From NCBI GenBank assembly GCA_964529745.1, contig CAZGZR010000002.1, positions 1,682-65,681 of the forward strand: a stretch of DNA of 64,000 nucleotides. Direction: 5' to 3'. The notes beneath the pieces were generated by a model, which saw only the letters and a program-made list of their open reading frames with translations, did no database searches and was not told the origin of the DNA. Of this stretch, positions 29,248-62,439 are shown piece after piece. The first letter of the stretch is position 1; each line of letters begins with the position of its first letter. A program made the translations under genes and the position numbers. The DNA comes from an uncultured Candidatus Bathyarchaeia archaeon. GTDB lineage: Archaea > Thermoproteota > Bathyarchaeia > TCS64.

Positions 29248-29360
29248 TGTTCGATTCCATAGGACTATTAGAATTGATGCGTTTAGATTTTATCAAGTCA
29301 TTAATTACTGTCATCGAGCCTTTTTTCTTATGACAACCTCTGATAATTTACAGGTAAAAC

Positions 29361-29376
29361 GGTGCGGGGGTGGGGT
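29361..29376. repeat. att-like partial copy B of tRNA-Leu 3' end (ggtgcgggggtggggt), preceded by atttacaggtaaa (29346-29358)
   Basis: 16/17 identity to the tRNA-Leu 3' acceptor/T-stem. Confidence 0.5.
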
Positions 29377-29651
29377 CTAATCCAAATAAAAAATCGTTAT
29401 CCCCCGAATCTTTCTTTCTTTTTTTCATTTCATGCATCTAGGGCGGACTTCTTGCCTGCGATATGTCTCAAAGAAATGTTGAGTGGACTAATGGGTTACT
29501 GAGGTACACGTTAAAAGTCTTTCAGGTTAAAGAGTTCAAGGCTCGTCCTAAGACGATACTCCAGCATTCGCTGGGTAATAAACGGATAATTAATTTTATA
29601 GATAGTTCATTTTAAAGGAAAGAGTTATAATAAATAATTGATTTTTATAAA

Positions 29652-29930
29652 TTAAATTATGTTTAATAAATCTTGGTAAGCATTATGACAGGTATCTCTC
29701 ATTGTAGAGTTTATCTGAAAATCTCCATATCTTGCCCAACGACTGATGTAAAAAGAGCATAAATAATCTTGAGCATAATTTTTCAAATGTCTTGAAACAA
29801 GTTTATTACGAATTTCATGATTTTTTGGGTGAATTGGTGTAGGAAGCCCCGCAAAAAATTTATCGACACAGTGTAAGGCGCCATAAAATAAAATTGTAGA
29901 TTCCCAATCAAGAAATTTACGAGAATTCAT
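29652..29930 (-). CDS. Small AT-rich protein with a HEPN-like Rx6H motif (candidate RNase/toxin)
   Basis: 92 aa. EIRNKLVSRH fits R[N]x4-6H. It is the last gene of a co-oriented AT-rich 3-gene cassette. Confidence 0.4.
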   Translation of the reverse strand: MNSRKFLDWESTILFYGALHCVDKFFAGLPTPIHPKNHEIRNKLVSRHLKNYAQDYLCSFYISRWARYGDFQINSTMRDTCHNAYQDLLNII

Positions 29931-29997
29931 ATCTAATACATTATAAGCATCATAATTTGATTTTAGAAGAGAGTCATGTTCCTGTTGAGTTGGTATA

Positions 29998-30561
29998 TTA
30001 TTTCCTCCTTAAAAATAAAGGACTCCACTCCGATGATATTGAAAATGTTGAATTAGTTGGTTTAAGTGAAAAATCAAATAAAATATCTTCATATCTATTT
30101 TCTAATTCAATTTGAATATTTACAATTTCTTTTAAAGTATTTGATATGTTTTCAGGGTTAAATATGGTTAAAAAAGATACACCATCAGCATTTAATTTAC
30201 AATAAATTATTTGAACTGCTTCTATTCTTGAGGCTTTTTCTTTGTAATATATAATTGATTCATCTTTTTTTGATTCTTTTTTCCATAATAATCCCTTAAT
30301 TTCTTTTAATTCAATTAACATTGTATCGTATTTTGATTCCAATTCATTTATCTTTTTATCATATTGTGTTAATTTTTCTCCATTTGATATTTGAGGAACT
30401 TTTTTTGAAGTTGACAATAATTGAACTATTTGGTCAATAAAAAACAAAGTACGAGGTTCAGGTTCTTGGATTAAAAAATCAAGTATATCACTTTGAGATA
30501 ATCGTCTTTCAGAACGAAAATATTTTAAAACATCTTCAAGGTTCTCTTCACGTGAACTCAT
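29998..30561 (-). CDS. Hypothetical protein (AT-rich cassette gene 2; predicted coiled-coil)
   Basis: 187 aa, Lys/Glu-rich heptad-like segments (KKINELESKYDTMLIELKEIKGLLWKKESKK). Confidence 0.5.
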   Translation of the reverse strand: MSSREENLEDVLKYFRSERRLSQSDILDFLIQEPEPRTLFFIDQIVQLLSTSKKVPQISNGEKLTQYDKKINELESKYDTMLIELKEIKGLLWKKESKKDESIIYYKEKASRIEAVQIIYCKLNADGVSFLTIFNPENISNTLKEIVNIQIELENRYEDILFDFSLKPTNSTFSISSEWSPLFLRRK

Positions 30562-30562
30562 A

Positions 30563-31225
30563 TTATCCCCTTACTTTTAATGAGATATCATTTACTTCAG
30601 ACAAAGTTTGTTCTAATAATTGATCAATATCTATTGGCCCATCTAAGGAAAAATCTGTTTCATAATTAATCCTAAGTTCACCATCTTTTTCATTTGAATT
30701 ATATCTAGTAATTAATGAATCTTCATTTTTTTCAAGAGAAATACCTGAAAGATTATAACCCATATCAAATATACCAGGGCATTTATCTTTAGCAATATTA
30801 GTATATCTCAACTTAGAATTCGTGGATATTCGTAAAGTAAGTGATAAAATAATTTTATTATATGGAGTATTTGTTAACTCACTACCTAAACCCATAAGAT
30901 AGTTTGCATCAATACTAATAGAATTGTAATCGATTTTAGTAAAATCAGTTTTTTCAGTTTTTATAAATGGCGGTACATATGTACCAATGCGAATTGCTAT
31001 TGAATTGACATTAAAGTCGTATGAAACATTATTTCCTGAAATGGAATATCTTGGAACAATATCAAAAATTTCCATTATAGAATCACGCCTTTGATCAGGC
31101 GCTTTAATTTGAATTTTGGATATTGGCATTTCATCAATAATTCTTTTTACATAATTAGGTTCATGTTCTCTGAATTTTATTTTGATTTCAAAAATCTCAA
31201 CGTCGTTCTTTGAAAAGAGTGACAT
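30563..31225 (-). CDS. Hypothetical protein (AT-rich cassette gene 1)
   Basis: 220 aa. The stop is 1 nt from the start of the next gene. No recognisable motif. Confidence 0.5.
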   Translation of the reverse strand: MSLFSKNDVEIFEIKIKFREHEPNYVKRIIDEMPISKIQIKAPDQRRDSIMEIFDIVPRYSISGNNVSYDFNVNSIAIRIGTYVPPFIKTEKTDFTKIDYNSISIDANYLMGLGSELTNTPYNKIILSLTLRISTNSKLRYTNIAKDKCPGIFDMGYNLSGISLEKNEDSLITRYNSNEKDGELRINYETDFSLDGPIDIDQLLEQTLSEVNDISLKVRG

Positions 31226-31342
31226 TTTCGAAATATTTAGTAAGTTAATGAAAATATAAGTTTGATGGATACCATTTATTTATAACGACAACAAGGAGAA
31301 GATAAATAGTTAAAGGATTCAAGATATCCATTTTCAAGCAAA

Positions 31343-31792
31343 ATGAAATTTCTACCTAAAGAAGGAACCCTTCAACTGGTAATCGCGGGAATACCAAATA
31401 AATACAAGCCATTCTGTAAACTACTGCTTGAAGCTGGCCTGACCTCTCTTGAGGCTTGGCAACTGAAATGGAGCAGCATCAACTTCAAGACAGGACACTT
31501 CAACGTGACACCGACAAAAAAACCGTAATCCTCGGACACTACAGCTATCACAGAGCCTTTTCACATGATACAGCTTCAGAGAAGGCTTCAGAAAACACAG
31601 GATAAAGCTAGCAGAGGAGCTAGGCAAACCGGTGATACTGAAATACAGTCTCAAGACTTTCAGGACATTCTGTGTCACAAGCTGCATCTACAAGTTCAAC
31701 GACCCGTTCGATAAAGCTATGGCAGAAACCGAAATAACGGTGGGTGGTGCCTGTGATGCGGGGGTGGGGTTCGAACTCTCCTACTTGAAGTG
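31343..31792 (+). pseudogene. Tyrosine-integrase pseudogene (frameshifted C-terminal catalytic region) abutting att copy A
   Basis: Frame 2 encodes LTSLEAWQLKWSSINFKTGHFNV (box I-like) and stops after an A7 run at about 31519. Another frame continues ...LKTFRTFCVTSCIYKF... (degenerate box II) to 31792. Confidence 0.5.
31756..31775. repeat. att-like partial copy A of tRNA-Leu 3' end (tgcgggggtggggttcgaac)
   Basis: 19/20 identity to 31935-31955. It lies about 160 bp from the intact tRNA. Confidence 0.55.
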
Positions 31793-31931
31793 ATACCACC
31801 ACACTCTCTTTTTATCAATGTTTTTTCTCTCCATCCATGGTTGGGTAACCACTTCACCTGCCTAAAGTAACAAATCATTTATACGATACTCCATAAAAAA
31901 AACGAAAAGTTACCGCCCACCGTTACCAGCA

Positions 31932-32017
31932 TGGTGCGGGGGGTGGGGTTCGAACCCACGGAGGACTAGTCCATCAGGTCCTAAGCCTGACCCCTTTGGC
32001 CACTCGGGAACCCCCGC
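31932..32017 (-). tRNA. tRNA-Leu (anticodon TAG), class II with long variable arm, CCA encoded
   Basis: The minus strand reads GCGGGGG-TT-CCCG..GGG-T-CAGGC/TCAGG-CTTAGGA-CCTGA-long variable arm-GTGGG-TTCGAAC-CCCAC-CCCCCGC-A-CCA. Acceptor, anticodon and T stems all pair. Confidence 0.8.
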
Positions 32018-51408: not shown

Positions 51409-51944
51409 TTGTATAGCTCCTCCCCTTTCTCGCCGTAGAGGTTGACCACCAGGTTTCTGGTGATGTCCTCGGGCTTTATAGCGTACAGGTCATAGTTCTT
51501 TGACGATGTCCTTGTCCCCACGGAGAGGGCTCCGTAACCCGCCTCGACGCACACCTTGGCGCACTCGGGGTCGCCGCCGCAGAGGTCGCATATGACGACG
51601 CGGCCCCCCTCGGGGTGGAGGTGGGGCACCTCGCCGGGGCACGCCTGGATGCAGGCGCCGCAGGTGACGCATTTCTCATCGTCCACGATGACGGCCCCCG
51701 TATCGTCGTCCACCGAGAGGGCGTCCACGGGGCAGCTCGATACGCAGGGGTAGTCGCTGCACTGGGTGCACAGGTGGGGGGCCTCGGCTCCGGGTACCAG
51801 CATGAACACGCGTACCCTGGACGCCTCCGGCCACACACGGCCCTCGTGTTTCATGCTGCAGGCGATCTCGCAGAGCCTGCATCCGCTGCACTTCATGTAG
51901 TCTCTGATCACCCACGGCTTCATTACCGGCACGGGTCTACTCAA
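51405..51944 (-). CDS. 4Fe-4S (poly)ferredoxin, AOR-associated electron-transfer subunit
   Basis: Four CxxCxxCxxxCP-like clusters. 4-nt overlap with the AOR gene. Confidence 0.7.
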   Translation of the reverse strand: MSRPVPVMKPWVIRDYMKCSGCRLCEIACSMKHEGRVWPEASRVRVFMLVPGAEAPHLCTQCSDYPCVSSCPVDALSVDDDTGAVIVDDEKCVTCGACIQACPGEVPHLHPEGGRVVICDLCGGDPECAKVCVEAGYGALSVGTRTSSKNYDLYAIKPEDITRNLVVNLYGEKGEELYK

Positions 51945-52064
51945 TATGATTCACAAGGGCTTTCGGAATCTTCATACAATAAATGGTTTTCGAGTGGATA
52001 GGTTTGTATCGCTGCCAGAAAAACAGTTATCCTGTGCGATCCATTTGGGGTGGGTGACTGAGCG

Positions 52065-52301
52065 TTGATAAGTGTTCGTGTCCGGCTGTACGGCGAGCTG
52101 AGGGAGCGTCTCGACGCGGCGGGCCCCGATGGGACGTTGAGCCTGCCGGAGGGATCGACGCTTGAGACGCTCAACGAGAGCCTGGGGATACCCATCGAGG
52201 ACGTGGTGGTGACGCTGGTCAACGGTGTCGCCGTTAGCCGGGGCGCCGTTCTCCGGGATGGGGATCGGGTTGACGTGTTTCCTCCTCTGGCAGGTGGATG
52301 A
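52065..52301 (+). CDS. MoaD/ThiS-family sulfur-carrier protein
   Basis: 78 aa ending in GG (..FPPLAGG). Divergent from the AOR operon. Confidence 0.65.
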   Translation: MISVRVRLYGELRERLDAAGPDGTLSLPEGSTLETLNESLGIPIEDVVVTLVNGVAVSRGAVLRDGDRVDVFPPLAGG

Positions 52302-52803
52302 ACGCGCAGCCTCCTACTCTGGGGATGCTCGTCGCCGTGGCGTGGTTCAGGTGTGCTCGCGGAGTTTGGTTTCCTATAAATGCGAAGTGCCCGAATGTTC
52401 TCGCCTGGAGATGCAGTTTCTCTCTGAGCCAAAGCCCAGCGAGTACTTGGAAGCCCATCTCTTCGGCTCCGCGGTTCCTCGGCCTTTCGCTTCTTTGGCC
52501 GTGGGTCCGCTCCCATTCGGGCAAAGGGTATATGTACACGGAATATATATTTCGGTTCCGTTTCACGGCGAAGGTAACGGGTACGGGTGTTTTATAAGGC
52601 CAGCCCCCGTTTTTTAACTCGCGCCTGTTAAGAACGTCGCATCTCGTTGAGGCAACCGTATTTTGATCTCACCCTGTTAATATCCAGCCTCTGCCACGCC
52701 TGTTTTTAATTCATGTGTCAAACCGTCCCCTCCACCGGGTGAGAGTTATCGCATGCGTCCACGTAGCTACTCTTAAAAACCGGGAAATGTTAATTGGGTG
52801 CGC

Positions 52804-52881
52804 GGGCCCGTAGCTCAGCACGGATAGAGCACAGCCCTCCTAAGGCTGGGGTCGAGGGTTCGAATCCCCCCGGGCCCGCCA
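52804..52881 (+). tRNA. tRNA-Arg (anticodon CCT), CCA encoded
   Basis: GGGCCCG-TA-GCTC-AGCACGGATA-GAGC-A-CAGCC-CTCCTAA-GGCTG-GGGTC-GAGGG-TTCGAAT-CCCCC-CGGGCCC-G-CCA. Acceptor and anticodon stems are perfect. Confidence 0.8.
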
Positions 52882-52882
52882 C
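52856..52882 (+). repeat. attL (within the tRNA-Arg 3' end)
   Basis: Exact 27-nt match to 57477-57503. Confidence 0.85.
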
Positions 52883-52898
52883 GAACCCCCCTGGGACA

Positions 52899-54047
52899 TT
52901 ATTTGAGTTTACGATACAGATGCAGGTCATCGAACTCATCGACCTTGTTGAAACCTGCTTCTAGTAGAGATATGGCCTCTTCATGCGTCTTGGCTACCTT
53001 CACGGTGAAATTGTTTTCATCGTGGAACATGGCTTCCGATAGCTGTATGTATTTCAGAGTATGGTTTATCGTCTTGTGACCTAGGAACTGCTGAACATAC
53101 ACGATATCTTTTGTTTGATGATAGAGCATTGTGGCCTTCCAGTGTCGGAACGTATGGAATGTTATTTTCTTTATCCTGTTGTTCTGGAGTTTGTACGCTG
53201 CGCGTTTTCTAGCACGTAAAACGTTCCTGTTTAGCGTCTTCTTTGTCTTTGCGTACAGCTTGTTTGTACCATGTTTTCTCTTGGCTTCGAGAAGCATGTT
53301 GATACATCGGTGAGTTATCTTCGTTATTCGTGGGTTGCTTCCTTTTTCTGGACTAATCCGAATCGTGTTAGACTCCAGATCAATGTCATCCCATGTACCA
53401 TCAAGAGCTTCGCCTTTCCTCAAAGCCGTCTCTTTGGCCAATTGAAGAATAGCTGCTTCCTCTATGTTACAATTCGCAATCAGATTATCAATTTCTGATT
53501 CAGTTGGGATAAATGGAAAAGTTTGTTTCTCTGTGAACTTTGGTTTTTCCCATTCCATTCCCATCATTGACAGAAAATCTGTGTATGTGTCGCATGCTCT
53601 GTTCTTGCTCTTCCCAACCCATTTCTGCTCAGCTATCTTTAACTTCACTGATTCAGGGTCAAGAAGAATTGCTCCTCTTTTCGCTAGTACCTTTATGTGT
53701 CGATGTCTGCGTTCAATTGTTGGCTCTGCGAGTCCACGTTTTTTCATGTGAAATATGAACTCTAGAAGCAGTTTTTCCGTGTCTGAGATATTCCCCGTAG
53801 CTCCTACTTTAGTTGTAGCTACGATCAAGTTTTTCGACTCCTTAGAGATGTCGCCTACTTGACAACCAATACTCTGATTCTGGGCTGATATATTTTCTGC
53901 GATGAACTTTCTACCACAGATATTACAGCTTCGACGCTGATAGATCTTATCTTTCCTCGTTATTTTTCCTTCTTTATGGTTTTCAGTACTTCCACATCTA
54001 GGACTAACTAATCTTGCGCTTTCACCTCCTTCAACCTCTTTCAACAT
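52899..54047 (-). CDS. Tyrosine recombinase/integrase (intact, pNOB8-type arrangement next to att), N-terminal Zn-finger-like region
   Basis: Box I (ALRKGEALDGTWDDIDL), box II (HTFRHWKATML), catalytic Tyr (HTLKYIQL). CGS...CNICGRKF at the N-terminus. Confidence 0.85.
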   Translation of the reverse strand: MLKEVEGGESARLVSPRCGSTENHKEGKITRKDKIYQRRSCNICGRKFIAENISAQNQSIGCQVGDISKESKNLIVATTKVGATGNISDTEKLLLEFIFHMKKRGLAEPTIERRHRHIKVLAKRGAILLDPESVKLKIAEQKWVGKSKNRACDTYTDFLSMMGMEWEKPKFTEKQTFPFIPTESEIDNLIANCNIEEAAILQLAKETALRKGEALDGTWDDIDLESNTIRISPEKGSNPRITKITHRCINMLLEAKRKHGTNKLYAKTKKTLNRNVLRARKRAAYKLQNNRIKKITFHTFRHWKATMLYHQTKDIVYVQQFLGHKTINHTLKYIQLSEAMFHDENNFTVKVAKTHEEAISLLEAGFNKVDEFDDLHLYRKLK

Positions 54048-54058
54048 TTTAAAAACTT

Positions 54059-54544
54059 TTAATCAGGTAATGTTTCGGATATGGCCTGAACGATCCTTTT
54101 AGCCAGCTCCAGCTCTTTCGAAAGTCTTTCCCTGTAAGTAGCCACATTAGATAGTTCCTCAATAAAATTAGTCAGTATCTTATCAGGTGGAAATAGGCTA
54201 GTTGGATCATACCGGGATAGATCAGTATCTTCTTCATCTGTCCATGTATTGTAGATAAGCCCAGAAGGAAGATAGTATGTTTCCATTGTGGCTAGAATGT
54301 TATCAGCTATGATACTTGTTTCTTCGATTTTCACTTTGAAGTTGTGTTTCTTCATTAGGGGAAGCATGGTTTTTAGAAGCTCGGAGTATTGTTTTCTCAG
54401 TGTTTCGTCGTCTGCTTCATTGGGTTCGAAGGTGTATCCTATGAGGACGTTTTCTGTGATTTCGGATAGGTTTAACCCCATCTCTTTGGCTTTTTGAACC
54501 GCTTCTTTATTTACACTCAGGTTCAACCTCTGTTTCTCAGACAT
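54059..54544 (-). CDS. Ribbon-helix-helix (CopG/Arc-like) N-terminal domain protein with C-terminal extension
   Basis: MSEKQRLNLSVNKEAVQKAKEMGLNLSEITENVL is a typical RHH beta-alpha-alpha. Confidence 0.5.
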   Translation of the reverse strand: MSEKQRLNLSVNKEAVQKAKEMGLNLSEITENVLIGYTFEPNEADDETLRKQYSELLKTMLPLMKKHNFKVKIEETSIIADNILATMETYYLPSGLIYNTWTDEEDTDLSRYDPTSLFPPDKILTNFIEELSNVATYRERLSKELELAKRIVQAISETLPD

Positions 54545-54633
54545 ATCATTCTATACGCATACCAATACGTATATAAATTGTGCGTATATTAATGCGCATA
54601 ATCACTCAATTAACCCCTTTTTTATATTTTTAC

Positions 54634-54757
54634 GCCGTATATTAATGCCGTTTCCTATTGCCGTATGTTAATGCCGTTTCCTATTGCCGTATATTAATGC
54701 CGTTTCCTGATGCCGTATATTAATGCCGTTTCCTGATGCCGCATATTAATGCCGTTT
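54634..54757. repeat. 4.7 tandem copies of a 26-bp iteron (gccgtatattaatgccgtttcctatt), putative replication origin/Rep binding array
   Basis: Seen directly in the sequence. Copies differ at 1-2 positions. There are no spacers, so it is not CRISPR. Confidence 0.8.
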
Positions 54758-55113
54758 TTTTATATAAACTGATTTTGAAAAAATGACTTACGTATCAAAA
54801 AATGTGAACATAAAAGATATAAATAAGATAAATACAATATTAAATGAGAAGCGCTTTCTCCACAGAAGGATAAAATAGGTTTTAGCCCCCACGCCAGGGG
54901 GAGAAACCTAGGTCTTTCCGCCCCTTCTGTGTATTATTCAATTATATATTAATTTTTATATAAATTCATCATTCGATTTTACTTTTATTAAGATACTGTC
55001 TATGTATATTGTGCATGTATTTTTTTCTCATTAACAAGTTTGAATTAGTCATATTATTATCAAGTCGTGGCGGGTTGGCGCTTCGCGCCTTCCCCGCCAA
55101 TCCATTAGAGATT

Positions 55114-55986
55114 TCATTCAACAGTATGTTTCAACAATATTGCCCAAGGAGATACTCCATACTGAATAATTTCAATATTGGCTATAAATGTAGCACCTAT
55201 TTCCTTTTTATCTGGATTGGTATTTCTTCTTGAAAAATTCAAATATGATGTTTTTACTAAATCTTCATTTGCTTTTCCTAATACATGTATTTCAAAATAT
55301 GAAAATACATTAATATCCCTCTCCTCTATCATCGTCTTTATTTCATCATCATATATTAGATTCAGTATTCTTTCATTATGGTCAGTACTATATATAAATT
55401 CACTATCATGCTCATCAATAAATAATATAAATCTGCCATTTATTGTATTTTCCTTTTTATTATCAAATTTCCACTGTCTTAAATATGATGCATTGAAATC
55501 AACATCTAAATGTTCTTCTTTTAATGGTGCCACCTTAGATAATTCTTTTATTGTATATGCCTTTGCAGAATAAAAATACATTCTTGATCCATCCCAACAT
55601 TTTATTCCTCTTTCGAGATATTCATTTATTTCGCTTGGATTTTTTAAGGAATTTGATATCAACATACCCGAATTAATGTTTTGTAATAAATAATCTGATT
55701 CATGTGCTCTTGCTTCAGCGATATCATCTAATAAATCTGTAATATCTGAACCTGTAAAATTACCTCTTTTAATACTAAGCGCAATATTACCATCAGGGGA
55801 AAAAATAGGTTTTTTTAAAACACATTTATATTTTAATGATGGAGGTTCCCCAATAAAATTAATTATTTTATCAATGCTTGGTTGGATAACATTTTCCCTA
55901 ATCACCTGATAACCTAATAATTCTAAAAGTTTTTTAATTTGATATTCTGCTGTTGAACCAATCATTGGTGCCAGGTGACCTGACAA
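55114..55986 (-). CDS. Hypothetical protein (AT-rich cargo; possible nuclease-like)
   Basis: 290 aa with no confident motif. A possible D..(D/Q)xK patch is HLDVDFNASYLRQWK. Confidence 0.45.
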   Translation of the reverse strand: MSGHLAPMIGSTAEYQIKKLLELLGYQVIRENVIQPSIDKIINFIGEPPSLKYKCVLKKPIFSPDGNIALSIKRGNFTGSDITDLLDDIAEARAHESDYLLQNINSGMLISNSLKNPSEINEYLERGIKCWDGSRMYFYSAKAYTIKELSKVAPLKEEHLDVDFNASYLRQWKFDNKKENTINGRFILFIDEHDSEFIYSTDHNERILNLIYDDEIKTMIEERDINVFSYFEIHVLGKANEDLVKTSYLNFSRRNTNPDKKEIGATFIANIEIIQYGVSPWAILLKHTVE

Positions 55987-55991
55987 ATTTG

Positions 55992-56447
55992 TTATCCCTC
56001 ATCGGGAATTCTAATGTAATGATATCTTCCTTCCCTTTCTATTCTCCTCAATACTCCTCTTTGGACTAGTCTTCTCAGATAAACACCAATAGCACCAGCT
56101 GAATCAGGAACAGCATTTATTTCAAGTGCTCTAGCTACTTCTGCCGAAGATCTTGGAGTTCTACCCCAATCTGTATCGAATAAAGATTGAATATTGGATA
56201 TTGTACTCCTTTGAACTCTAATAACTGGAACCTCAGATGTCGGAGCTTCTAAGATTTCTTCTTCAGTAGGTGTTTCAATATCAACCCTTTCGCCTTCTCC
56301 TAAAATTTCATTTACTTCATCTATGAATTCCTTAATCTGTTCAAGATTCGTTCTTAAAAATTCAAGGCTACCTGTTACAGATAATTCGTAAGTGTTACCT
56401 TTTATTTTAAAATGAAATTCCTGAGATTCGTCTTCTGTCATTCCCAT
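55992..56447 (-). CDS. Hypothetical protein with C-terminal winged-helix DNA-binding domain
   Basis: C-terminus AEVARALEINAVPDSAGAIGVYLRRLVQRGVLRRIEREGRYHYIRIP resembles a wHTH. Confidence 0.5.
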   Translation of the reverse strand: MGMTEDESQEFHFKIKGNTYELSVTGSLEFLRTNLEQIKEFIDEVNEILGEGERVDIETPTEEEILEAPTSEVPVIRVQRSTISNIQSLFDTDWGRTPRSSAEVARALEINAVPDSAGAIGVYLRRLVQRGVLRRIEREGRYHYIRIPDEG

Positions 56448-56452
56448 ATTTA

Positions 56453-57397
56453 CTATAAAGCTTTATAGAATGTAAAATATTCGGATGAATGGATTTTCCA
56501 AAAATCGTTATAAGATAACTCAACACTCCAAGAGACATATTTTCCGTTAATATCAGCCCAGAACCCGACAAGATACCACTTGTATATCGAGTTACCTTCA
56601 AGATCCACCTGACCACGAGGACTATCATCCTTCTCCTCAACAAGAAACAACCCAAAACCCTTCGAAACAGAAAAAGCCCGCTTACGGAAAATCCACATCA
56701 AAGCAAGAGATAAGACCATATTACGATTCCGCTTCTCAGTCAACAACGCATTATTCACCTTAGTAACATACTTCAACACATAACCCACACCAGCACCAAG
56801 ACTGTACAACCCGAACACGTCACTAAAGCCCCACTTCCAATAACTCGTGAGTAACGCCTTCTCCTTGATCCTCCACTTCCCATTATAGAAGAAAGTCTCA
56901 AACTCAGTTTCACGAAAAAGAGCTATACAATGAATATGCGGATAACCATCACGCTGAGCCTCCCACACACGAATAAGATCAAATTTACCATACCTCCTCT
57001 GTATACCTGATCTTGTCCTGTTGAATAATTTCCCAATCTCTTCCCAAGCCTGATCGAGACTCATCTTCCTCCTAAATGTGAAAGTAATGAACAATGCTCT
57101 CGTTTTCTGTATCTTGTTCCGATCCTTAGGATTGAAGAACTCGATATTCGGTAAATTCAATAAATGTTTTAACCGCTTACCTAGTTTCCAAGCATAAACA
57201 TCGTTACCACGTTTCGCGGCCTTAACCGCCTTGTACTCTTTCTCATAAGTGTGTATATTCTCTTTTCTGAATATCAAATACTCAACATATTTTGACCACT
57301 CGATGAAATACTCGATTATCTGATCCAAATCCGGATTCGAATGTCCAAGTAATGATTTATACCACCCAAGTCTGGGTTTAGGTTTTTTAAATGACAT
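56453..57397 (-). CDS. HUH-superfamily rolling-circle replication initiator (phiX174 gpA-like, two-Tyr motif III)
   Basis: Motif I FITFTF, motif II HIHCIALF (HUH), motif III GVGYVLKYVTK (YxxKYxxK as in the phiX174 A protein). Confidence 0.75.
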   Translation of the reverse strand: MSFKKPKPRLGWYKSLLGHSNPDLDQIIEYFIEWSKYVEYLIFRKENIHTYEKEYKAVKAAKRGNDVYAWKLGKRLKHLLNLPNIEFFNPKDRNKIQKTRALFITFTFRRKMSLDQAWEEIGKLFNRTRSGIQRRYGKFDLIRVWEAQRDGYPHIHCIALFRETEFETFFYNGKWRIKEKALLTSYWKWGFSDVFGLYSLGAGVGYVLKYVTKVNNALLTEKRNRNMVLSLALMWIFRKRAFSVSKGFGLFLVEEKDDSPRGQVDLEGNSIYKWYLVGFWADINGKYVSWSVELSYNDFWKIHSSEYFTFYKAL

Positions 57398-57476
57398 AAA
57401 ACAGGCATTGAGCCTGTCCTAGATTGTGGATGAAAAAAAGAAGGAAAGTACACGGTGAATATCTCCATGTCGGGAA

Positions 57477-57503
57477 GGGTTCGAATCCCCCCGGGCCCGC
57501 CAC
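57477..57503 (+). repeat. attR (duplicated tRNA-Arg 3' end)
   Basis: Exact 27-nt copy of 52856-52882. The upstream gtcg also matches. Confidence 0.85.
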
Positions 57504-57734
57504 CTTGACAAGCGAATACCTTGTCTTTTTTACCTTCTTTGACTGGGACCGGCGAGAATTGAACTTACGAATAAACGCACGCTTAGCGAGTGTGATTTGT
57601 GCTTGAAATCCGTGTGGGGTCCCACCCCACGCACCATGTTTTGGTAACAGTGGGCAGTAACTTTAGGCCTTTTTTTCGTATCTATTTTTTAATGGTATGG
57701 TCTTGGGGGAGATAGTAATATCATCCTTTATGTA

Positions 57735-57760
57735 GGGTCCGAATCCCCCGTGCCCGCCAC
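57735..57760 (+). repeat. Decayed third copy of the tRNA-Arg att core (gggtccgaatcccccgtgcccgccac; 3 differences)
   Basis: Compared directly with attL/attR. Confidence 0.4.
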
Positions 57761-57820
57761 ACATAGACCTGTGCGTGGGAGGAAGCAGGTTAATGGATAC
57801 GCTCAGGATGCGTGCTCACA

Positions 57821-59680
57821 CTACTTGTTGTTCCATGCATCCCAAGCCTGTCTCTCATGATCTTCTTCACTGATCAGTCCCATCGAGTTAAACGGTTCAA
57901 AGATGTCTGGATCATACATAAAACTCCAAATCGCTACTTCCACGTCCAATTCTTTCGTCAGATCGAAGAACCTCTCTATGAATTCAGCCTGCTCTGTTTC
58001 GCTGCTCTCCCAACCCTCTGGCGAGTCTGAACAGTGCCAACCCATCTCGGTAAACGCGACTGGTTTCGAGACATGTGACATTATTTCGGTATAGTGATCG
58101 GGCGGGATGTCTGTTACTTCTCGATAGAAGAGACCTGGATACGTTGTGAAAGCTACAACGTCAAGCTTGAAGCGGTCGATCATTTCCCAGTGGGGTTCGT
58201 TTTCTTTGATCTCCCACATGTCCAAGCCCTTCATGGTCTCAAGCTGAAACACCGTGAATACCTTGGTGTTTGGAGAAACCTCCTTGATCGCATCATAAAC
58301 CTGGTTGTAGAACGGTACGAACTCCTCGAAGGCCTCCGGGTTTTTCTCGGCGAAAATGTTTGTCTCGACGCCGATCCCGAGATAAGCTGGCTTATATTCT
58401 CCTACAAAATCTAGCGTTGAATCTAGGTATTCTTGTTTATAATCCTCTAAAGGCCTGAATAAGGCACCTGTTTCTTGAATGTAGTGTCCCACTTCAATGA
58501 TTGGGGTATAGTGATATTGCCGTGATAGCTCTGTAAAGGTTTTAGGGGCCCCACCCTCAGATACCTCGATCCAGTCTCCGGCCCATAGTAACATGTCCTG
58601 GGTTTCCCCAACCTTTTCTAGAAAATCAGTGAAATCTTCTGGTTCGAAACTTTTTGGAGAAACACTCACCCCCTTTAACGGCTTCTGCTTTTTGTATGCA
58701 ACATAGATGTCTGCCTCGAGCATGTTTCCTTCGTCGTCATAGAAATGGTGTGTAAAGTAGACGTTACCTTGATTGTCCAGTGATGGTTCTCCAGCCAGGG
58801 TCTTTATCATCAACTCTGGTTCCGTCCATTCGCCATCGACTCGTTTCGACCGGTAGAGATTGGATGCGCCTTCGAGCCTGGTGAACCACATCTCAGATCC
58901 ATCGGGGGAGACCCAAGGCCAGCCTTCACTGTACTCAGAGTTTATTACGCTGATGCTGGATGGTTCTCCCCATTCTCCATCCTCCATCTTTGACACCCAT
59001 ATATCGTATCCGCCTTTTCCTGGTCTAGCCGAGTGGAAATACAATTCATCGCCTACGATGTGAAGCTCACCCACTTCATACGATGAGTTAAAGTCAGAGA
59101 GAAGCCAGTTTGTCCACTCCCCATCGGCATAATCTGCAGTAAACCAATGCAAATCCGTGTACCCTTCCCGTACAGAACAGAACCACATCTTGTCCCCGTC
59201 TATGAACTCGCATCCGTCGAGAACAGGGGTGCCCGGTTCACAGAGCCATACTCTTTCTGGAGTACTCCATTGACCATCCTGCAGCTTCGACACATATATC
59301 CCGGTCACCAGGTCAACCGCTTGAGCATGAACATCCATGAGATTGTCAGGGGTAAACCAAAAGTACAGGGTATCCCCACCGGGCAACATATACGCGGAGT
59401 CTTCCGCTCCTCTGGTGTTTATCGGGTATGGAAGTGGTTCTGGCTGGTGGTATTCGGGTGATATGGTTATCGGTGGATGCGGGTCTGTTTCAGGAGTTAT
59501 TTTAACCATAACGTCTGGGATCTTGCTTTCCCTTGAGGGAACGATGATTTCTTCTTTTTCCTCCGATGTCCCTTGAGCGTCATCATCTCCTGTATCTTCA
59601 TCTGGTACACGTTTTACTGAGATGAAGCCAACTAACATTATGACTGCGATGACTACAACTAAGAGGAGGTTCTTCCGCAT
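57821..59680 (-). CDS. Secreted/membrane-anchored fusion: TolB-like (PD40) beta-propeller repeats + C-terminal GH5-like (beta-mannanase/cellulase-like) TIM-barrel glycoside hydrolase
   Basis: N-terminal signal/anchor MRKNLLLVVVIAVIMLVGF. PD40-like repeats (GDTLYFWFTPDN, GDKMWFCSVREG, GDELYFHSARPGKGGYDIWVS, DGSEMWFTRLEG). C-terminal VAFTEMGW motif and several conserved Trp/Glu. Confidence 0.55.
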   Translation of the reverse strand: MRKNLLLVVVIAVIMLVGFISVKRVPDEDTGDDDAQGTSEEKEEIIVPSRESKIPDVMVKITPETDPHPPITISPEYHQPEPLPYPINTRGAEDSAYMLPGGDTLYFWFTPDNLMDVHAQAVDLVTGIYVSKLQDGQWSTPERVWLCEPGTPVLDGCEFIDGDKMWFCSVREGYTDLHWFTADYADGEWTNWLLSDFNSSYEVGELHIVGDELYFHSARPGKGGYDIWVSKMEDGEWGEPSSISVINSEYSEGWPWVSPDGSEMWFTRLEGASNLYRSKRVDGEWTEPELMIKTLAGEPSLDNQGNVYFTHHFYDDEGNMLEADIYVAYKKQKPLKGVSVSPKSFEPEDFTDFLEKVGETQDMLLWAGDWIEVSEGGAPKTFTELSRQYHYTPIIEVGHYIQETGALFRPLEDYKQEYLDSTLDFVGEYKPAYLGIGVETNIFAEKNPEAFEEFVPFYNQVYDAIKEVSPNTKVFTVFQLETMKGLDMWEIKENEPHWEMIDRFKLDVVAFTTYPGLFYREVTDIPPDHYTEIMSHVSKPVAFTEMGWHCSDSPEGWESSETEQAEFIERFFDLTKELDVEVAIWSFMYDPDIFEPFNSMGLISEEDHERQAWDAWNNK

Positions 59681-59923
59681 AATGGTTCAAAATATACTGG
59701 ACATGAAAATATTGAGGAACAGTAATCCATTTCATTCTAGTACAAGCAATCTAATCACACACAAATCAACCCGTTGTTTTTATGTGCGCGGACAAATCTT
59801 AGCGCTACAAGTTTGGTGTGTACACGTTTCATAGTCTAATTGTTTGTCTCCACCAGCCAGCAGCTACTTTTTCCGTCATTTGACGGTATAAATCTTAATT
59901 CATGTTGGATTTTAATGCTACAC

Positions 59924-60937
59924 ATGGGCGTAGACATCCCATGTGAGCAAGAGTTCAAGGATTTACTGTCAAGTAGAGGAGAATCAGAGGAAGCCATGTG
60001 TGATGCTTTGAGCCACGTTTCCGAGTACCTCGCCTTCCTTGAATTAAACGGCGTCAGAATCGATGGTGCAAGCGTTGACGACGTGAAAAACTACGTCAAG
60101 GGCTTGATGCTGAGTGGGCAGAACACCTATGGGAGGATGTTAGCCTTATGCATGTACATCAACATACTCGGGTACCTAGACCAGTACCTATATCTGGCGG
60201 AGCTGGTAGGAGGCGCACCCCTATACCAGTCATACCGTGAAAGGACGAGGGAGATCGCGGGAGAGGAGGCAGCCAGTAAGGTGTTTGACTCCATGAACCT
60301 GCCGCCGATCGGTACATCCGCTGAGGGTTTCCCGGAGTACACGCGGACGATGATGAACCGAATGAGTGCAGAGCTGGACGAGGAGCAGCGCATCAAGGTT
60401 CTCGCAGGCAACCACCATAAACGGCCACCACGATCATTCGATGCGAAGAAGCTTCTCTACGAGGACTCAGAGAATCTTGATGATTTTCTGAGGAGAGACC
60501 ATGAAAGCGTGGTAGAGCTTCTTGAGGAGCATATGAGGGATGGCCGCCTCTGGTATAGGAAGAAGGTTAGCCAAGAGTTCATCGACTATATCAAGGCGGA
60601 TCAGGAGAGGTTGTCGGCTCGCAGGGAAGGAGACACTCTGTACATCAAACAGATACCATACGAGTTCGATGAATACCTCAGCGAGACCGATCCGGTGAAG
60701 AAACGGTACCATTTCTGCCACTGTCACCTGGCACGAAGAAGCATCATCGAAGGCGAACCTGTTCCAAGCGAGTTCTGTCACTGCAGCGGAGGCTACCTGA
60801 AACAGCCCTATGAACATATTTTAGGCGAGGAGCTCGAAGTTAGGGTTCTCAAATCAGCGATGGGCGGCGATGATGAATGCAGGTTCGCCGTGAAGCTACC
60901 ATCAGACTGGGAAAAGAACACAAATGATGGCTACTAG
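59924..60937 (+). CDS. Hypothetical protein with C-terminal Cys/His-rich metal-binding motif
   Basis: RYHFCHCHLARRS...EFCHCSGGY...DECRF. The start is uncertain: ATGs at 59915 and 59924, and the ORF begins at 59840. Confidence 0.45.
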   Translation: MGVDIPCEQEFKDLLSSRGESEEAMCDALSHVSEYLAFLELNGVRIDGASVDDVKNYVKGLMLSGQNTYGRMLALCMYINILGYLDQYLYLAELVGGAPLYQSYRERTREIAGEEAASKVFDSMNLPPIGTSAEGFPEYTRTMMNRMSAELDEEQRIKVLAGNHHKRPPRSFDAKKLLYEDSENLDDFLRRDHESVVELLEEHMRDGRLWYRKKVSQEFIDYIKADQERLSARREGDTLYIKQIPYEFDEYLSETDPVKKRYHFCHCHLARRSIIEGEPVPSEFCHCSGGYLKQPYEHILGEELEVRVLKSAMGGDDECRFAVKLPSDWEKNTNDGY

Positions 60938-61263
60938 AGTATCTTCTGTACTCTACCGACTTTTTCATCAGTGTGCTTTACCTTGATGCCTAGTTTAATG
61001 TTGCTGCGTACCCTTTCCGTCCTGCCTCATATTGATACACCGGAGACACCTAGTACCTCACCTAGCATAGCTAACCTAAAGGCCGGACGTAACCCGTCGA
61101 TGCACCCGTAAGAACCATAGAGAAAAAGCGCTCCAAACGAGGATACCACGAGGTTCGGTTATAATGGTGTTGTATATAGTCTAGTCGTTTACATGGTCGG
61201 TTCGTGTACGTAGGGATAAAATTTAATCCACGAACCATGCTAAAAAAGGGTGAAGGATCCGCC

Positions 61264-62439
61264 ATGGAGATAGGTAGAGACATAGAGAAGGTGAGAGCCG
61301 AGTTCCCCGTCCTCAAGACTAAGGCCTACATGAACAGCGCCGCCCACGGCCCCACGCTGATGCGTGTACACGACGCCACGGAGGAGTGGTGGAGACACAG
61401 GATCAACGAGGAGCGGGTCGAGCCCCCCGACGCGGCCTCCGAGGCCGCCAAGATGCTGAACGTGGGCACGGACGAGATATGCTTGGTGAACAGGGTCAGC
61501 CAGGCCCTCAACACCGTGGCCTCCATGATGAAGCCCGAGAGAGGGCAGAACATAGTCGTCACCGACCTGGGCTACCAGAGCAACGTCTACGTCTGGATGC
61601 CCTATAGTATGCAAGGCGTCGAGATCAGGCGCATAAGGCACAGGGACGGCGTCATCGACGTAGATGACTTCGAGAAGGCTATAGACGACGAGACCCGCGC
61701 CGTGTGCATAAGCGAGATCGAGTGGACCAGTGGCGTCAGGTACCCCATGAGGGAGATAAGCGATATAGCCCACGGCCACGGCGCCTACGTGGTTAACGAC
61801 GCCTACCAGGCGGTGGGCGCCGTTGACATAGACGTCAGCTCCGAGGACGTGGACTTTTTCACCTTCGGCAGCGAGAAGTGGCTCTGCTGCCCAGCCATGA
61901 CAGGCGTACTCTACGTTAAGCGTAGCCTCCAAGACGAGTTCGAGCCCACCTACATGAACTACGGCAACGTCGAGGAGGCGTTCAGGGACGGCGCCCCATG
62001 GGAGAAGCCGGGCCACGACAACATAGAGTCCTACAGCGGGGCGCTCTACCCCGACGCACGGAAATACGGCCGAGGCTGCGTCAGCGAGGAGCACACGTGG
62101 GGCTTCCACGCCTGCCTCAGCTACTTCAACCAGCTGGGCACCAAGAACATCCAGAGGAGGACCGCCAGACTCAGCCAACACCTCATAGAGGGGCTGCTGG
62201 AGCAGCCGGTCAAGGTGAACACCCCATTGGAGCCCGGTGAAAGAGGCGGGCTGGTGACCTACAACACGGGGAGCTTCGAGAAGAACCAGAAGATATACGA
62301 CGAACTCAGGAAGAACGACGTGATAGTCGCCCACAGGTACGCGGCTGGCGTCGGCGGCATCAGGGTCTCGTGCCACTTCTTCAACACCGAGGAAGAGGTG
62401 GACCGGCTACTGGATATACAGGATAAAATCCTCAGGTGA
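61264..62439 (+). CDS. Class V aminotransferase (cysteine desulfurase/isopenicillin-N-epimerase-like PLP enzyme)
   Basis: The fold-type I class V pattern includes FFTFGSEKWLCCPAMTG (PLP Lys). ATG at 61264. Confidence 0.75.
   Translation: MEIGRDIEKVRAEFPVLKTKAYMNSAAHGPTLMRVHDATEEWWRHRINEERVEPPDAASEAAKMLNVGTDEICLVNRVSQALNTVASMMKPERGQNIVVTDLGYQSNVYVWMPYSMQGVEIRRIRHRDGVIDVDDFEKAIDDETRAVCISEIEWTSGVRYPMREISDIAHGHGAYVVNDAYQAVGAVDIDVSSEDVDFFTFGSEKWLCCPAMTGVLYVKRSLQDEFEPTYMNYGNVEEAFRDGAPWEKPGHDNIESYSGALYPDARKYGRGCVSEEHTWGFHACLSYFNQLGTKNIQRRTARLSQHLIEGLLEQPVKVNTPLEPGERGGLVTYNTGSFEKNQKIYDELRKNDVIVAHRYAAGVGGIRVSCHFFNTEEEVDRLLDIQDKILR

Follow-up and report, generated by a model that had tools for sequence, protein, structure and literature searches.

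The 64-kb window (the whole stretch of DNA that was analysed) carries, directly behind a tRNA-Arg gene, a compact AT-rich block that encodes both an integrase and an HUH endonuclease, which raises the question of what kind of element has settled there and how it is copied. In our reading, to which we assign a probability of about 80%, positions 52883-57475 represent an integrative rolling-circle plasmid, i.e., a "cryptic integrated element", in a probable Bathyarchaeia chromosome. The flanking AOR has named relatives of 56-69% identity in Bathyarchaeota or Thermoproteota MAGs, and the syntenic locus L027 encodes ribosomal protein L40e. The insertion site comprises the following features.

52804-52881, plus strand: intact tRNA-Arg(CCT) gene, the integration target (ARAGORN; Rfam RF00005, 61.9 bits).
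52855-52882: attL core, an exact 28-nt direct repeat identical to the tRNA 3' end.
57476-57503: attR core, the second exact 28-nt copy, with a flank unlike that of attL.
57504-57760: stub of an older insertion (229 nt) followed by a degenerate third att, missing from the empty site in locus L032.

An earlier note on this DNA had described an intact tRNA-Arg(CCT) gene followed by an AT-richer block, and ARAGORN, Rfam and the GC profile (0.62-0.67 upstream versus 0.26-0.43 within the block) agree with that description. The exact tRNA-end repeats that it reported are also present, although they are 28 nt long, one base more than the 27 bp given. The core reads AGGGTTCGAATCCCCCCGGGCCCGCCAC, its attL copy provides the 3' end of the tRNA, and the exact repetition of a 28-mer within 7.5 kb rules out chance. 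Locus L032 offers a clean empty site, in which tRNA-Arg(CCT) is fused directly to the downstream flank; both flanks are 94-95% identical to those in the window, and the stretch common to the two alignments is precisely the 28-nt att core. Since a relative with flanks only ca. 5% diverged is free of the element, the insertion must be recent, and the strong GC contrast likewise implies little amelioration. The repeats are not an ordinary duplicated tRNA fragment that relatives possess without the cargo, the outcome that the note had named as fatal to its proposal: tRNA-Arg(CCT) is single-copy in L027, L032 and L033, and no duplicated fragment occurs in the related genomes.

Compared with the empty site, the inserted DNA reaches 57760 and includes the stub; the L032 tRNA joins sequence equivalent to window position 57761 onward. 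The third att copy (57733-57760) is degenerate (71% identity ungapped; 25/28 with one 1-nt indel), and the stub carries a tRNA-Pro-like 3'-half fragment (57544-57582), 34/37 identical to the tRNA-Pro of L036. Scars consisting of an integrase 3' end follow the same tRNA-Arg in L027 and L033. The stub with its degenerate att would be what survives of an earlier insertion at the same tRNA site.

The element consists of five co-oriented ORFs, all on the minus strand, and a short spacer in front of rep.

52899-54047, minus strand: XerA-like tyrosine integrase, 382 aa (PF00589, 5.6e-22), an intact ORF.
54059-54544, minus strand: RHH protein, 161 aa, with an N-terminal ribbon-helix-helix (PF07362, CcdA).
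55114-55986, minus strand: p290, a cargo protein of 290 aa with an N-terminal PD-(D/E)xK nuclease fold.
55992-56447, minus strand: p151, 151 aa, starting 5 nt past the Rep stop codon, with weak matches only.
56453-57397, minus strand: Rep, 314 aa, a two-tyrosine HUH endonuclease and rolling-circle initiator (PF23343, above cutoff).
57398-57475, minus strand: att-rep spacer, 78 nt, with the heptamer TTTTTCA (57431-57437) and a local hairpin.

None of the five ORFs is truncated and the catalytic motifs are intact; the element is real and intact, a plasmid-like replicon of 4.6 kb with its own integrase. The integrase is, as previously noted, uninterrupted and next to attL: its ORF stops 17 nt from the att core, and in alignments with the XerA structures 5hxy and 4a8e the catalytic R, HxxR, H and Y are in place. 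It matches PHROG integrase families (6e-27) and scores 95.5 bits against NCBIfam XerA_Arch, under the 220-bit cutoff; the N-terminal extension is Cys-rich and zinc-ribbon-like. Homologues with 40-55% identity adjoin Reps of the same family in L036, L052, L073 and L074. The PD-(D/E)xK-fold protein p290 would fill a variable cargo slot, and it may have an accessory, defence-like or excision control role; the protein is 283 aa long if the start of the source annotation is used. A C-terminal winged helix-turn-helix is probable in p151, which has weak Pfam matches to GvpO (0.0067), Penicillinase_R (0.062) and LexA_DNA_bind (0.15) and a similarly weak one to PHROG 31115, "replication initiation protein" (0.072).

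The three HUH motifs previously read from Rep (FITFTF, HIHCIALF and YVLKYVTK) are borne out by 40 relatives, in which H154 and H156 are invariant and Y206, K209 and Y210 are invariant or at least 90% conserved. In the profile search that had been proposed as a test, Rep passes the curated HUH-Rep Pfam profile PF23343, and its confident structural model shows the HUH fold with a two-tyrosine Helitron nuclease as top match. The suggested phiX174 gpA arrangement holds for the two-tyrosine motif but does not extend to membership of Phage_GPA (12.1 bits versus a cutoff of 31.4; 8.5% hhalign probability with phiX174 protein A). Membership of Rep_1 was also rejected (no Pfam match at E <= 1; 5.4% hhalign probability with the pC194 Rep), and RepSA is matched with E = 0.15. 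Among the relatives additional matches to Rep_1 (7/40), Phage_GPA (7/40) and RepSA (2/40) occur, those to Rep_1 and RepSA being weak. Rep belongs to PF23343, a neighbouring family with the same two-tyrosine motif and with origins of the CTTG/ATA type. Neither PLSDB (tblastn) nor the phage collection contains a BLAST-level relative and, consequently, no characterised replicon anchors its function. Upstream of rep, the att-rep spacer keeps its length and layout though the att cores differ, with a hairpin (ACAGGC-TCAAT-GCCTGT) just before the rep ATG. RNAalifold found no consensus structure for the spacer; TTTTTCA shows no variation across 17 distinct sequences and may be rep's own promoter.

Where such a Rep would act can be approached from the non-coding part of the element, which holds four features.

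55038-55067, minus strand: dso nick box, CGACTTG/ATAATAATATGACTAATTCAAAC, 30 nt, on the Rep-sense strand and conserved in the family.
55069-55098, minus strand: GC hairpin, GGCGGG-GAA-GGCGC-GAA-GCGCC-AA-CCCGCC, directly 5' of the nick box.
54880-54940, minus strand: a further GC-rich hairpin region within AT-rich spacer DNA (ssDNA fold).
54583-54763: iteron region, five tandem 26-bp units and a lone half-site.

The 63-nt block of GC hairpin plus box is the sole non-coding sequence conserved among relatives with different cargo, and it is likely that the two together (55038-55098, Rep-sense strand) form the origin. The box, an exact match to the family consensus, occurs once in the window (0.00 expected), and across the 115 loci it is matched 35 times, in 34 of them and always on the Rep-sense strand. 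It is identical to the phiX174 origin (verified in NC_001422) at 20/30 positions; with the origin of pC194 it has CTTGATAATAA in common (PMC7072734), and CTTG/ATA with the origins of pGT5 and pTN1, which nick at GGGTTTATCTTG/ATA inside rep (PMC9569500). On the basis of this resemblance, Rep is predicted to cleave between G at 55061 and A at 55060. About eleven distant members of the family have the box within the rep ORF, as in phiX174 gene A, whereas it is intergenic in the window element. The GC hairpin starts 16 nt past the p290 stop codon and appears in both the MFE and the centroid ssDNA folds; jointly with the box it is 86-95% conserved in the clade of the window element. In L081 a different G/C palindrome replaces it, and more distant clades lack it. 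Since this absence is accompanied by almost no informative covariation, the hairpin may be just the end of the rep operon; it is either that or part of the dso. Folded as ssDNA, 54764-55112 (minus strand) gives z = -3.07, and the stem at 54880-54940, which persists in the centroid, is a weak candidate for a single-strand origin; its sequence is unconserved in the relatives, among which no convincing conserved single-strand origin was found.

These data also bear on the very improbable alternative that the HUH protein is a rolling-circle transposase or transfer relaxase (IS91-, Helitron- or mobilisation-like) instead of a replication initiator. It is true that pC194/pUB110-type Reps can also serve as relaxases (reviewed in PMC5714925), but the ends of the window element are tRNA-derived att repeats beside a tyrosine integrase and not Rep-recognised termini, while the box that Rep would recognise is single and internal. 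Furthermore, Rep contains no helicase domain, its relatives are autonomous small circles with hardly any genes besides rep, and the insertions are confined to tRNA 3' ends, no box-bounded Rep-to-origin copies being found at non-tRNA sites among the 115 loci.

The iterons, listed earlier as part of the replicon, are present (TRF 54634-54757: period 26, 4.8 copies, 94% matches, score 206), but they lie outside the conserved replication module. Each 26-bp unit consists of two 13-bp half-sites, CGTATRTTAATGC and GCCGTTTCCTRWT, which occur 6 and 4 times, versus 0.10 and 0.23 expected by chance; an isolated A-type half-site lies at 54583-54595. The iterons are unlikely to be the replication origin: the array is peculiar to this element, nothing similar being present in the relatives L036, L073 and L008, and the hairpin and box are conserved instead. 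The array sits within the RHH-Int promoter region, ca. 40-220 nt ahead of where the RHH gene starts, and with the RHH gene upstream of the integrase gene at a gap of 11 nt the two probably form one operon. The iterons are probably an operator or partition-like site of this module, bound by the RHH protein, and would govern integrase expression or maintenance rather than act as the Rep origin. The RHH protein matches CcdA over residues 4-36 only (2e-7, 31.7 bits, cutoff 22.4), a gene for a CcdB-like partner is absent, and no homologue was found in any other locus of the set.

The element does not stand alone. Its layout (attR-Rep-cargo-origin-Int-tRNA) recurs at tRNA-Pro(GGG) in L036 and at tRNA-Arg(GCG) in L073 and L074, of which L073 is minimal with Rep, one variable cargo gene and Int. 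Distant relatives of Rep (only 36-45% identity) also occur on 1.8-5 kb contigs whose ends overlap in the manner of circular assemblies, encoding Rep and small proteins only, some of them RHH-like. The family includes the complete 3.3-kb plasmid pClcol213, and relatives of Rep are found in Bathyarchaeia MAGs, in line with the proposed host; we found no description of this widespread family.

It could be argued that the element is the provirus of a small virus (pleolipovirus-like or another ssDNA virus), with Rep copying the viral genome and one unassigned protein being structural. Such Reps are typical of Microviridae and Inoviridae, Microviridae initiators lead the structural matches of Rep among the viral models of BFVD, followed by phage ORF2/G2P Reps, and one family member resides on a virus-like circular contig of 8.6 kb from Thermoplasmata (L018) that also encodes a 752-aa secreted protein, an ATPase and small membrane proteins. 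In addition, temperate archaeal pleolipoviruses integrate in the chromosome and replicate by rolling circle (PMC13107129). However, the five ORFs are explained as integrase, RHH, PD-(D/E)xK, wHTH and Rep, leaving no capsid or membrane protein, the element measures merely 4.6 kb, its minimal relatives consist of Rep, one variable cargo and Int or of Rep and a small RHH-like protein, and no relative of Rep was detected among 2.9 million IMG/VR viral contigs or in the phage collection. A provirus is, therefore, improbable.

Slightly less improbable, but still unlikely, is a formerly mobile element that is now chromosomally fixed and has lost excision and replication. Only the integrated form has been recovered: no circular or attP-junction form of the window element was found, and the sole other contig carrying it (L001) also has it integrated. 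The locus is, moreover, full of old insertions (the 57504-57760 stub with its att; the scars in L027 and L033), and integrase-less cassettes exist elsewhere in the lineage. Decay is hard to reconcile with perfect 28-nt repeats, five full-length ORFs with intact catalytic motifs, an origin box identical to the family consensus, and an insertion that is recent and little ameliorated. We infer that the integrative plasmid can still excise and replicate at present.

Among characterised replicons, phiX174 is similar in that the motif III tyrosines of protein A are three residues apart (YVAKYVNK versus YVLKYVTK here), its box starts C-ACTTG/ATA and the nicked strand is the Rep-sense strand. It differs in the size of protein A (513 aa versus 314 aa for Rep), and the window element has no capsid genes, an intergenic origin and integration by a tyrosine recombinase. 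The pC194/pUB110-type (Rep_1, PF01446) and pGT5/pTN1 (Rep75/Rep74) replicons are likewise small plasmids whose HUH Rep nicks CTTG/ATA, but we know of no integrase or tRNA-gene integration in them. The same two functions, a rolling-circle HUH Rep and a tRNA-targeting integrase, are combined in the pSAM2-type elements of actinomycetes, which carry RepSA, integrate at tRNA 3' ends by a tyrosine integrase and replicate after excision. These are bacterial, larger and conjugative, with transfer genes that the window element does not have.

For Archaea, Krupovic et al. (2019; PMC6563490) described cryptic integrated elements as small, with a tyrosine integrase, RHH/wHTH regulators and few genes; of the surveyed thaumarchaeal elements, NitAQ6f-E2 alone has a rolling-circle initiator. 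That initiator is of the SNJ1 type, unlike the PF23343 Rep of the probable bathyarchaeon. The temperate pleolipovirus SNJ2 (PMC13107129) also replicates by rolling circle and is, like the window element, an archaeal replicon found integrated, with integrase at one end, rep at the other and a conserved hairpin downstream of the rep operon; in both the genes are co-oriented, so that excision would join Int-attP-rep. However, its Rep-Arvir is a DUF7845 protein related to Rep_trans, not HUH, and SNJ2 is a virus with structural genes. The earlier judgement that the arrangement is unusual for archaeal integrative elements is fair, but NitAQ6f-E2 and SNJ2 are precedents.

Taken as an integrative plasmid, the element would have entered when its XerA-like integrase recombined the 28-nt core of attP and the tRNA-Arg(CCT) 3' end of the same sequence, its own att copy completing the tRNA at attL and the displaced copy staying at attR. 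The excised circle would read ...RHH-Int-attP-Rep-p151-p290-origin-iterons. Rep would nick the Rep-sense strand at CGACTTG/ATA (55061/55060), beside the GC hairpin, and remain joined to the 5' end, leaving the 3'-OH to be extended by host enzymes. Its second tyrosine would then close the displaced strand, as in phiX174 protein A and in the pC194- and pGT5-type Reps, which act on the same core sequence. Binding of the RHH protein to the iterons in the RHH-integrase promoter would control integrase expression or maintenance. The family to which the element belongs is widespread, and both its parts and its mode of working are known.

The earlier note described a tRNA-Arg gene followed by an AT-richer block that is bounded by repeats of the tRNA 3' end, and this was borne out by ARAGORN, Rfam, a repeat search and the GC profile, with 0.62-0.67 upstream as against 0.26-0.43 within the bounded block. 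The repeats are indeed exact copies of the tRNA 3' end, but the length of 27 bp given for them has to be revised: the last 27 nt of the tRNA-Arg gene plus one next base (52855-52882) recur exactly at 57476-57503 and the repeat, the att core, is therefore 28 nt long. The element between the two copies is filled by five ORFs, all on the minus strand, and the features of the region are as follows.

52804-52881, plus strand: tRNA-Arg(CCT), found by ARAGORN, with which Rfam agrees
52855-52882: attL, beside the integrase gene
52899-54047, minus strand: integrase, 382 aa
54059-54544, minus strand: RHH protein (RHH161), 161 aa
55114-55986, minus strand: p290, 290 aa
55992-56447, minus strand: p151, 151 aa
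56453-57397, minus strand: Rep, 314 aa
57476-57503: attR, beside rep
57733-57760: degenerate third att copy, 25/28 identical to the core, with one indel

The predicted attP junction reads ...CCATGTCGGGA + 28-nt core + GAACCCCCCTGGGACATT... and the predicted attB junction ...GCTGGGGTCG + 28-nt core + CTTGACAAGCG..., while the contig from the source sample that carries the same element (L001) holds the integrated form only.

Looked up by exact sequence, the 179-aa and 619-aa proteins of the flanks gave no match, and related genomes were instead fetched via proteins that share 90% clusters with flanking host genes (P0128, P0130, P0178). On either flank, locus L032 (JGI 3300057013) matches the window at 94-95% identity. 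Window positions 51467-52882 align to L032 4128-2711 and positions 57734-59751 to L032 2738-717, the two L032 alignments overlap by exactly the 28-nt core, and the L032 tRNA is intact. This locus is the empty site of the element, and the direct repeats that flank the element, together with an unoccupied site in a close relative, identify it as site-specifically integrated. The possibility that the 27-bp repeats are an ordinary duplicated tRNA fragment, which would occur without the cargo, was weighed as well; the related genomes show no such thing.

What the window has gained relative to the empty site is the stretch 52883-57760, which comprises the element of 4.6 kb with its perfect attR and, behind it, a stub of 229 nt that ends in the degenerate att copy. 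Such a pattern is typical of a tRNA gene that was used for integration twice in succession, the older element having since been almost wholly deleted. The insertion is recent. On inspection of its sequence, the stub (57504-57732) bears no resemblance to the spacer upstream of rep, and it therefore derives from a different kind of element. Within it, positions 57544-57582 match the 3' half of the tRNA-Pro(GGG) gene of the related locus L036 with 34/37 identity, and this fragment is probably the att relic of yet another element. Two further relatives, L027/L028 (92%) and L033 (80%), have a single tRNA-Arg followed by ca. 40-60 nt resembling the 3' end of the integrase gene (HLYRxLK) and, behind that, different cargo. 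The remnant and the cargo rule them out as empty sites. The integrase-like stretches (L027 8440-8525; L033 ca. 8423-8470; translation ...HLYRGLK) are scars that earlier related insertions left behind. The tRNA-Arg(CCT) gene is an integration hotspot. Further downstream, 57821-61250 holds a 619-aa and a 365-aa ORF at a GC content of 0.45-0.50 and belongs to a variable region, in which L027 instead carries genes for an MFS transporter, a GNAT and two unknown products and L033 none of these genes; core synteny is back near 61254-61279.

The integrase passes PF00589 (78.8 bits vs. a cutoff of 27.1). Aligned to XerA 5hxy, it has TALRKGE, HTFRH, LGH, and KYIQ at the catalytic positions, and the catalytic R, HxxR, H, and Y are all in place in comparison with archaeal XerA structures. 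It falls, however, below the cutoff of NCBIfam NF040815, the equivalog model of the archaeal chromosome dimer resolvase XerA (95.5 vs. 220 bits), possesses an additional N-terminal Cys-rich domain and is located at the end of a mobile element. The intact, pNOB8-like arrangement proposed previously, which is that of a type II archaeal integrative element, holds: the ORF is complete at 382 aa and its stop codon (52899-52901) lies 17 nt outside the end of the att core at 52882. An SSV-type (type I) element is excluded, because the integrase is unsplit and no integrase fragment is present at attR.

The HUH motifs reported for the Rep could be confirmed, with HIH at residues 154-156 and YVLKYVTK as the Y-x3-Y motif III; H154, H156, and K209 are invariant in 40 relatives and Y206 and Y210 are kept in at least 90%. 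The protein scores 53.8 bits on PF23343 (REP_ORF2-G2P; cutoff 27.8; E = 2.5e-14), a profile passed by all 40 relatives; Rep_1 is also matched by 7/40 (best E = 1.2e-7), Phage_GPA by 7/40 (weakly) and RepSA by 2/40 of the same set. In total 284 homologues were found, nearly all metagenomic. The AlphaFold model is confident (pLDDT 89.1) and its predicted fold is that of an HUH nuclease, with Microviridae initiators and ORF2/G2P Reps as the closest viral models. A phiX174 gpA-type arrangement had been suggested, and this stands as far as the two-tyrosine motif III is concerned but does not extend to membership of the family: the Rep reaches only 12.1 bits on Phage_GPA (PF05840; cutoff 31.4), and hhalign against phiX174 protein A returns a probability of 8.5%, with motif III aligned. 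Likewise, Rep_1 (PF01446; pC194/pUB110) gives nothing at E ≤ 1, and hhalign against the pC194 Rep returns 5.4%, with the right motifs aligned. The weak profile matches and the aligned motifs together indicate a two-tyrosine HUH initiator akin to the phiX174 and pC194 families and a member of neither. It is not a Rep-Arvir protein either, as it has no DUF7845 Pfam match and an HUH fold. A PDB sequence search with the Rep yielded no match, and no relatives were found in IMG/VR contigs, PLSDB plasmids or the phage collection.

When the element was compared by BLAST with the first Rep-bearing loci, only one non-coding stretch outside rep proved to be conserved, 63 nt long and 86-94% identical. It is conserved while the other genes differ, a pattern that held after 80 further loci. 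It contains the following features.

55098-55069, minus (Rep-sense) strand: GC hairpin, followed by the box
55067-55038, minus (Rep-sense) strand: box CGACTTGATAATAATATGACTAATTCAAAC, part of the conserved 63-nt block

Expressed as the degenerate pattern GACTTGATA-N4-7-KGMMTAAYTMAAAC, the box matches once in the 64-kb window (0.00 expected), and its 35 matches elsewhere, spread over 34 of 115 loci, are all on the Rep-sense strand. The phiX174 record has CAACTTG|ATATTAATAACACTATAGACCAC, with the origin annotated at 4306, and the box is identical to the phiX174 origin at 20/30 positions, the best match that either strand of the element offers. The pC194 origin includes CTTGATAATAA (PMC7072734), and in pGT5 and pTN1, two plasmids of archaea, the cut falls at GGGTTTATCTTG/ATA within rep (PMC9569500). 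From the likeness of the box to these sites a nick is predicted between G55061 and A55060 on the minus strand. Conserved and strand-specific in 34 loci, the box is a strong in silico candidate for the double-strand origin of rolling-circle replication.

In ca. 11 distant family members (Rep identity ca. 30-48%), the box lies within the rep ORF (L085, L086, L087, L088, L089, L091, L068, L080, L016, L018, and L015), where it is written as CGACTTGATA...TCAAAC. In most of these it occurs ca. 770-800 nt from the start of rep, directly past a conserved FRKRAFSVS motif, at a position that corresponds to a low-confidence linker in the model of the window's Rep; L085, L086, and L091 are circular contigs. 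These distant members thus parallel phiX174 gene A and pGT5, in which the origin is inside rep, whereas the box is intergenic in the window's clade, and also in L067, L073, and L074. The hairpin is confined to the window's clade; L081 has another G/C palindrome instead, and in L044 the hairpin is 318 nt away from the box. It may belong to the origin or else mark where the rep-p151-p290 operon ends. Near 54880-54940 a second hairpin lies in a region structured as ssDNA (z = -3.07); it is unconserved in relatives and, from its predicted folding, a weak candidate for a single-strand origin.

The iterons were previously counted among the parts of the replicon; as its Rep origin they are rejected. 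The array (4.8 copies of a 26-bp unit, 94% matching) consists of alternating 13-bp half-sites, six of A-type and four of B-type, with one A-type half-site apart at 54583-54595, closer to the RHH start codon. An iteron-controlled theta replicon, with the array as the Rep origin, would call for its presence alongside related Reps; no such array was found in relatives with 45-74% identical Reps, and the block that is conserved is the 63-nt one. The array is next to the RHH-Int operon rather than to rep, and no RHH161 homologue was detected in the other fetched loci. The array therefore belongs to the RHH-Int module, and its likeliest role is that of an operator or a partition-like site of RHH161. 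In this protein only an N-terminal RHH was recognized (residues 4-36), through the CcdA model; a CcdA/CcdB toxin-antitoxin pair is rejected because only the RHH part is matched, the downstream gene is the integrase and there is no CcdB-like ORF. The p151 protein is probably a wHTH protein, as weak hits suggest, and p290 has a nuclease fold. PADLOC found no defence-system match for p290, p151, RHH161 and the two downstream ORFs, and Pfam and PHROGs revealed no virion-protein matches in the element. A provirus would be expected to carry capsid or virion genes; the nuclease fold of p290 and the absence of the Rep from IMG/VR contigs also speak against one.

Among the related loci one layout recurs, with attR, ca. 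80 nt, Rep, cargo, origin, (regulator), Int, and tRNA in this order. The target is tRNA-Pro(GGG) in L036 (flanking repeat of 23 nt, 22/23 identical) and tRNA-Arg(GCG) in L073, to which L074 is similar (29 nt, 27/29 identical), and the integrases of these elements are 40-46% identical to that of the window. The cargo gene varies from element to element. In L036 the slot between Rep and origin (5347-6222) is occupied by an AbiTii abortive-infection protein (PF18864, 2e-7), suggesting that these small elements may carry defence genes; the same slot is taken in the window by p290 (PD-(D/E)xK fold). L008 and L009 are syntenic with the window at 32-39 kb and have, at the orthologous tRNA-Leu (L008 6962-13510; the same in L009), three tandem cassettes carrying Rep (3.5 kb), VapBC (1.1 kb), and a DEAD-helicase (1.8 kb), bounded by three exact copies and one 85% copy of the tRNA-Leu 3' end. 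The copies on either side of the Rep cassette are exact. No recognizable integrase was found in these cassettes. In the window, tRNA-Leu(TAG) (31932-32017, minus strand) borders a low-GC island (0.26-0.40 at 29-32 kb) with degenerate copies of the tRNA-Leu 3' end at 31761-31778, 28263-28280, and 26577-26594 and a short ORF (31343-31528) that looks like an integrase fragment; 26577-32017 appears to be a second integration hotspot with decayed elements. Another large acquired region may be represented by positions 1001-19000 (ca. 18 kb), with a GC content of ca. 0.40-0.50 vs. 0.60-0.66 in the 32-52 kb core.

A tRNA-Leu core is also present upstream of rep in L002-L007, and the rep ATG is 78-80 nt from the att core whichever core this is. 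Within this spacer the heptamer TTTTTCA is invariant in the window (57431-57437, minus strand) and 16 other distinct relatives, ca. 31-37 nt upstream of the rep ATG, and constant across att cores and integrase types. It may act as a promoter element, as a binding site for a protein or, once the element is circular, as the terminator of the integrase operon. Right beside the rep ATG, the window, L008, L002, L036, and L073 show a hairpin, but this is not a conserved feature, as RNAalifold gave no consensus pairs on 17 distinct sequences and only TTTTTCA is invariant.

More distant Reps (36-45% identity) occur on contigs of 1.8-5 kb with terminal overlaps of 55-127 nt, which indicates that these contigs are circular; apart from the Rep, they encode only one or two small proteins, of which some are RHH-like. 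A Rep with 26% identity is carried by pClcol213, a complete plasmid of 3.3 kb. L018, a circular 8679-nt contig from a Thermoplasmata MAG (terminal overlap 121 nt), encodes a Rep of the family together with a secreted protein of 752 aa, a P-loop ATPase and a number of small membrane proteins; it looks virus-like and may be a virus using this Rep family. L085 (5002 nt, terminal overlap 79 nt, a 4.9-kb circle) has two rep genes of ca. 390 aa, each with an intragenic box (1419-1448 and 4073-4102). Either two variants were assembled together here, or the contig is a plasmid that is dimer-like or has two replicons.

The host, from which the source NCBI contig spans 67 kb, is probably a bathyarchaeon. 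Relatives of the AOR in the flank, at 56-69% identity, belong without exception, where named, to MAGs of ‘Candidatus Bathyarchaeota’ or Thermoproteota, a gene for ribosomal protein L40e is present in the syntenic locus L027, and among named genomes Bathyarchaeia MAGs hold the closest Rep relatives. Matches obtained by tblastx against named MAG contigs were mostly to the Rep gene and uninformative in this respect.

The interpretation given in the earlier note is correct in its essentials. The element is an integrative rolling-circle plasmid or cryptic integrated element, whose current excision, nicking and replication we infer. Bacterial elements of the pSAM2 type pair an HUH Rep with an integrase that targets tRNA genes. 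From archaea, reports of integrated elements with rolling-circle initiators are rare, e.g., one thaumarchaeal cryptic integrated element with an SNJ1-type Rep (PMC6563490). The temperate pleolipovirus SNJ2 has a non-HUH Rep-Arvir protein (DUF7845, related to Rep_trans), and its rep operon is formed only after excision (PMC13107129). Our literature search, from which subscription journals were absent so that novelty is unproven, revealed no description of the Bathyarchaeia-associated Rep family. To the earlier reading the analysis adds an empty site that is defined, an improved assignment of the origin and evidence that the family is sizeable and modular.

We estimate the chance at roughly one in four that the element is one configuration of an undescribed modular system of Bathyarchaeia and neighbouring archaea. 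In such a system, a conserved module of Rep, spacer and CTTG|ATA origin would join interchangeable integrase/att modules, with tRNA-Arg(CCT), tRNA-Arg(GCG), and tRNA-Pro(GGG) as the att targets seen, and the origin would have shifted between intragenic (phiX174-, pGT5-like) and intergenic positions within one Rep family. The tRNA-Leu Rep/VapBC/helicase cassettes, being without integrase, would need to be moved in trans. Because rep always starts ca. 78-80 nt from the att core and the genes all point the same way, rep would, once the element is excised, lie across attP immediately behind the integrase operon, and replication could thus be coupled to excision, as in the unrelated SNJ2 Rep-Arvir system.

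The element introduces no new mechanism. The Rep family carries the range of two-tyrosine initiators of the phiX174/pC194 type, and of their CTTG|ATA origins, on to elements integrated in uncultivated archaea, from which integrated rolling-circle replicons have seldom been reported. We know of no genetic system for Bathyarchaeia, and a self-contained element of 4.6 kb that has a defined integrase with an att site of 28 nt, and a Rep with a compact candidate origin, would be a natural basis for integrative or shuttle vectors; closely related occupied and empty sites are also at hand. The family as a whole, with intragenic and intergenic origins, with and without integrase and with several tRNA targets, forms a comparative series for the study of module exchange.
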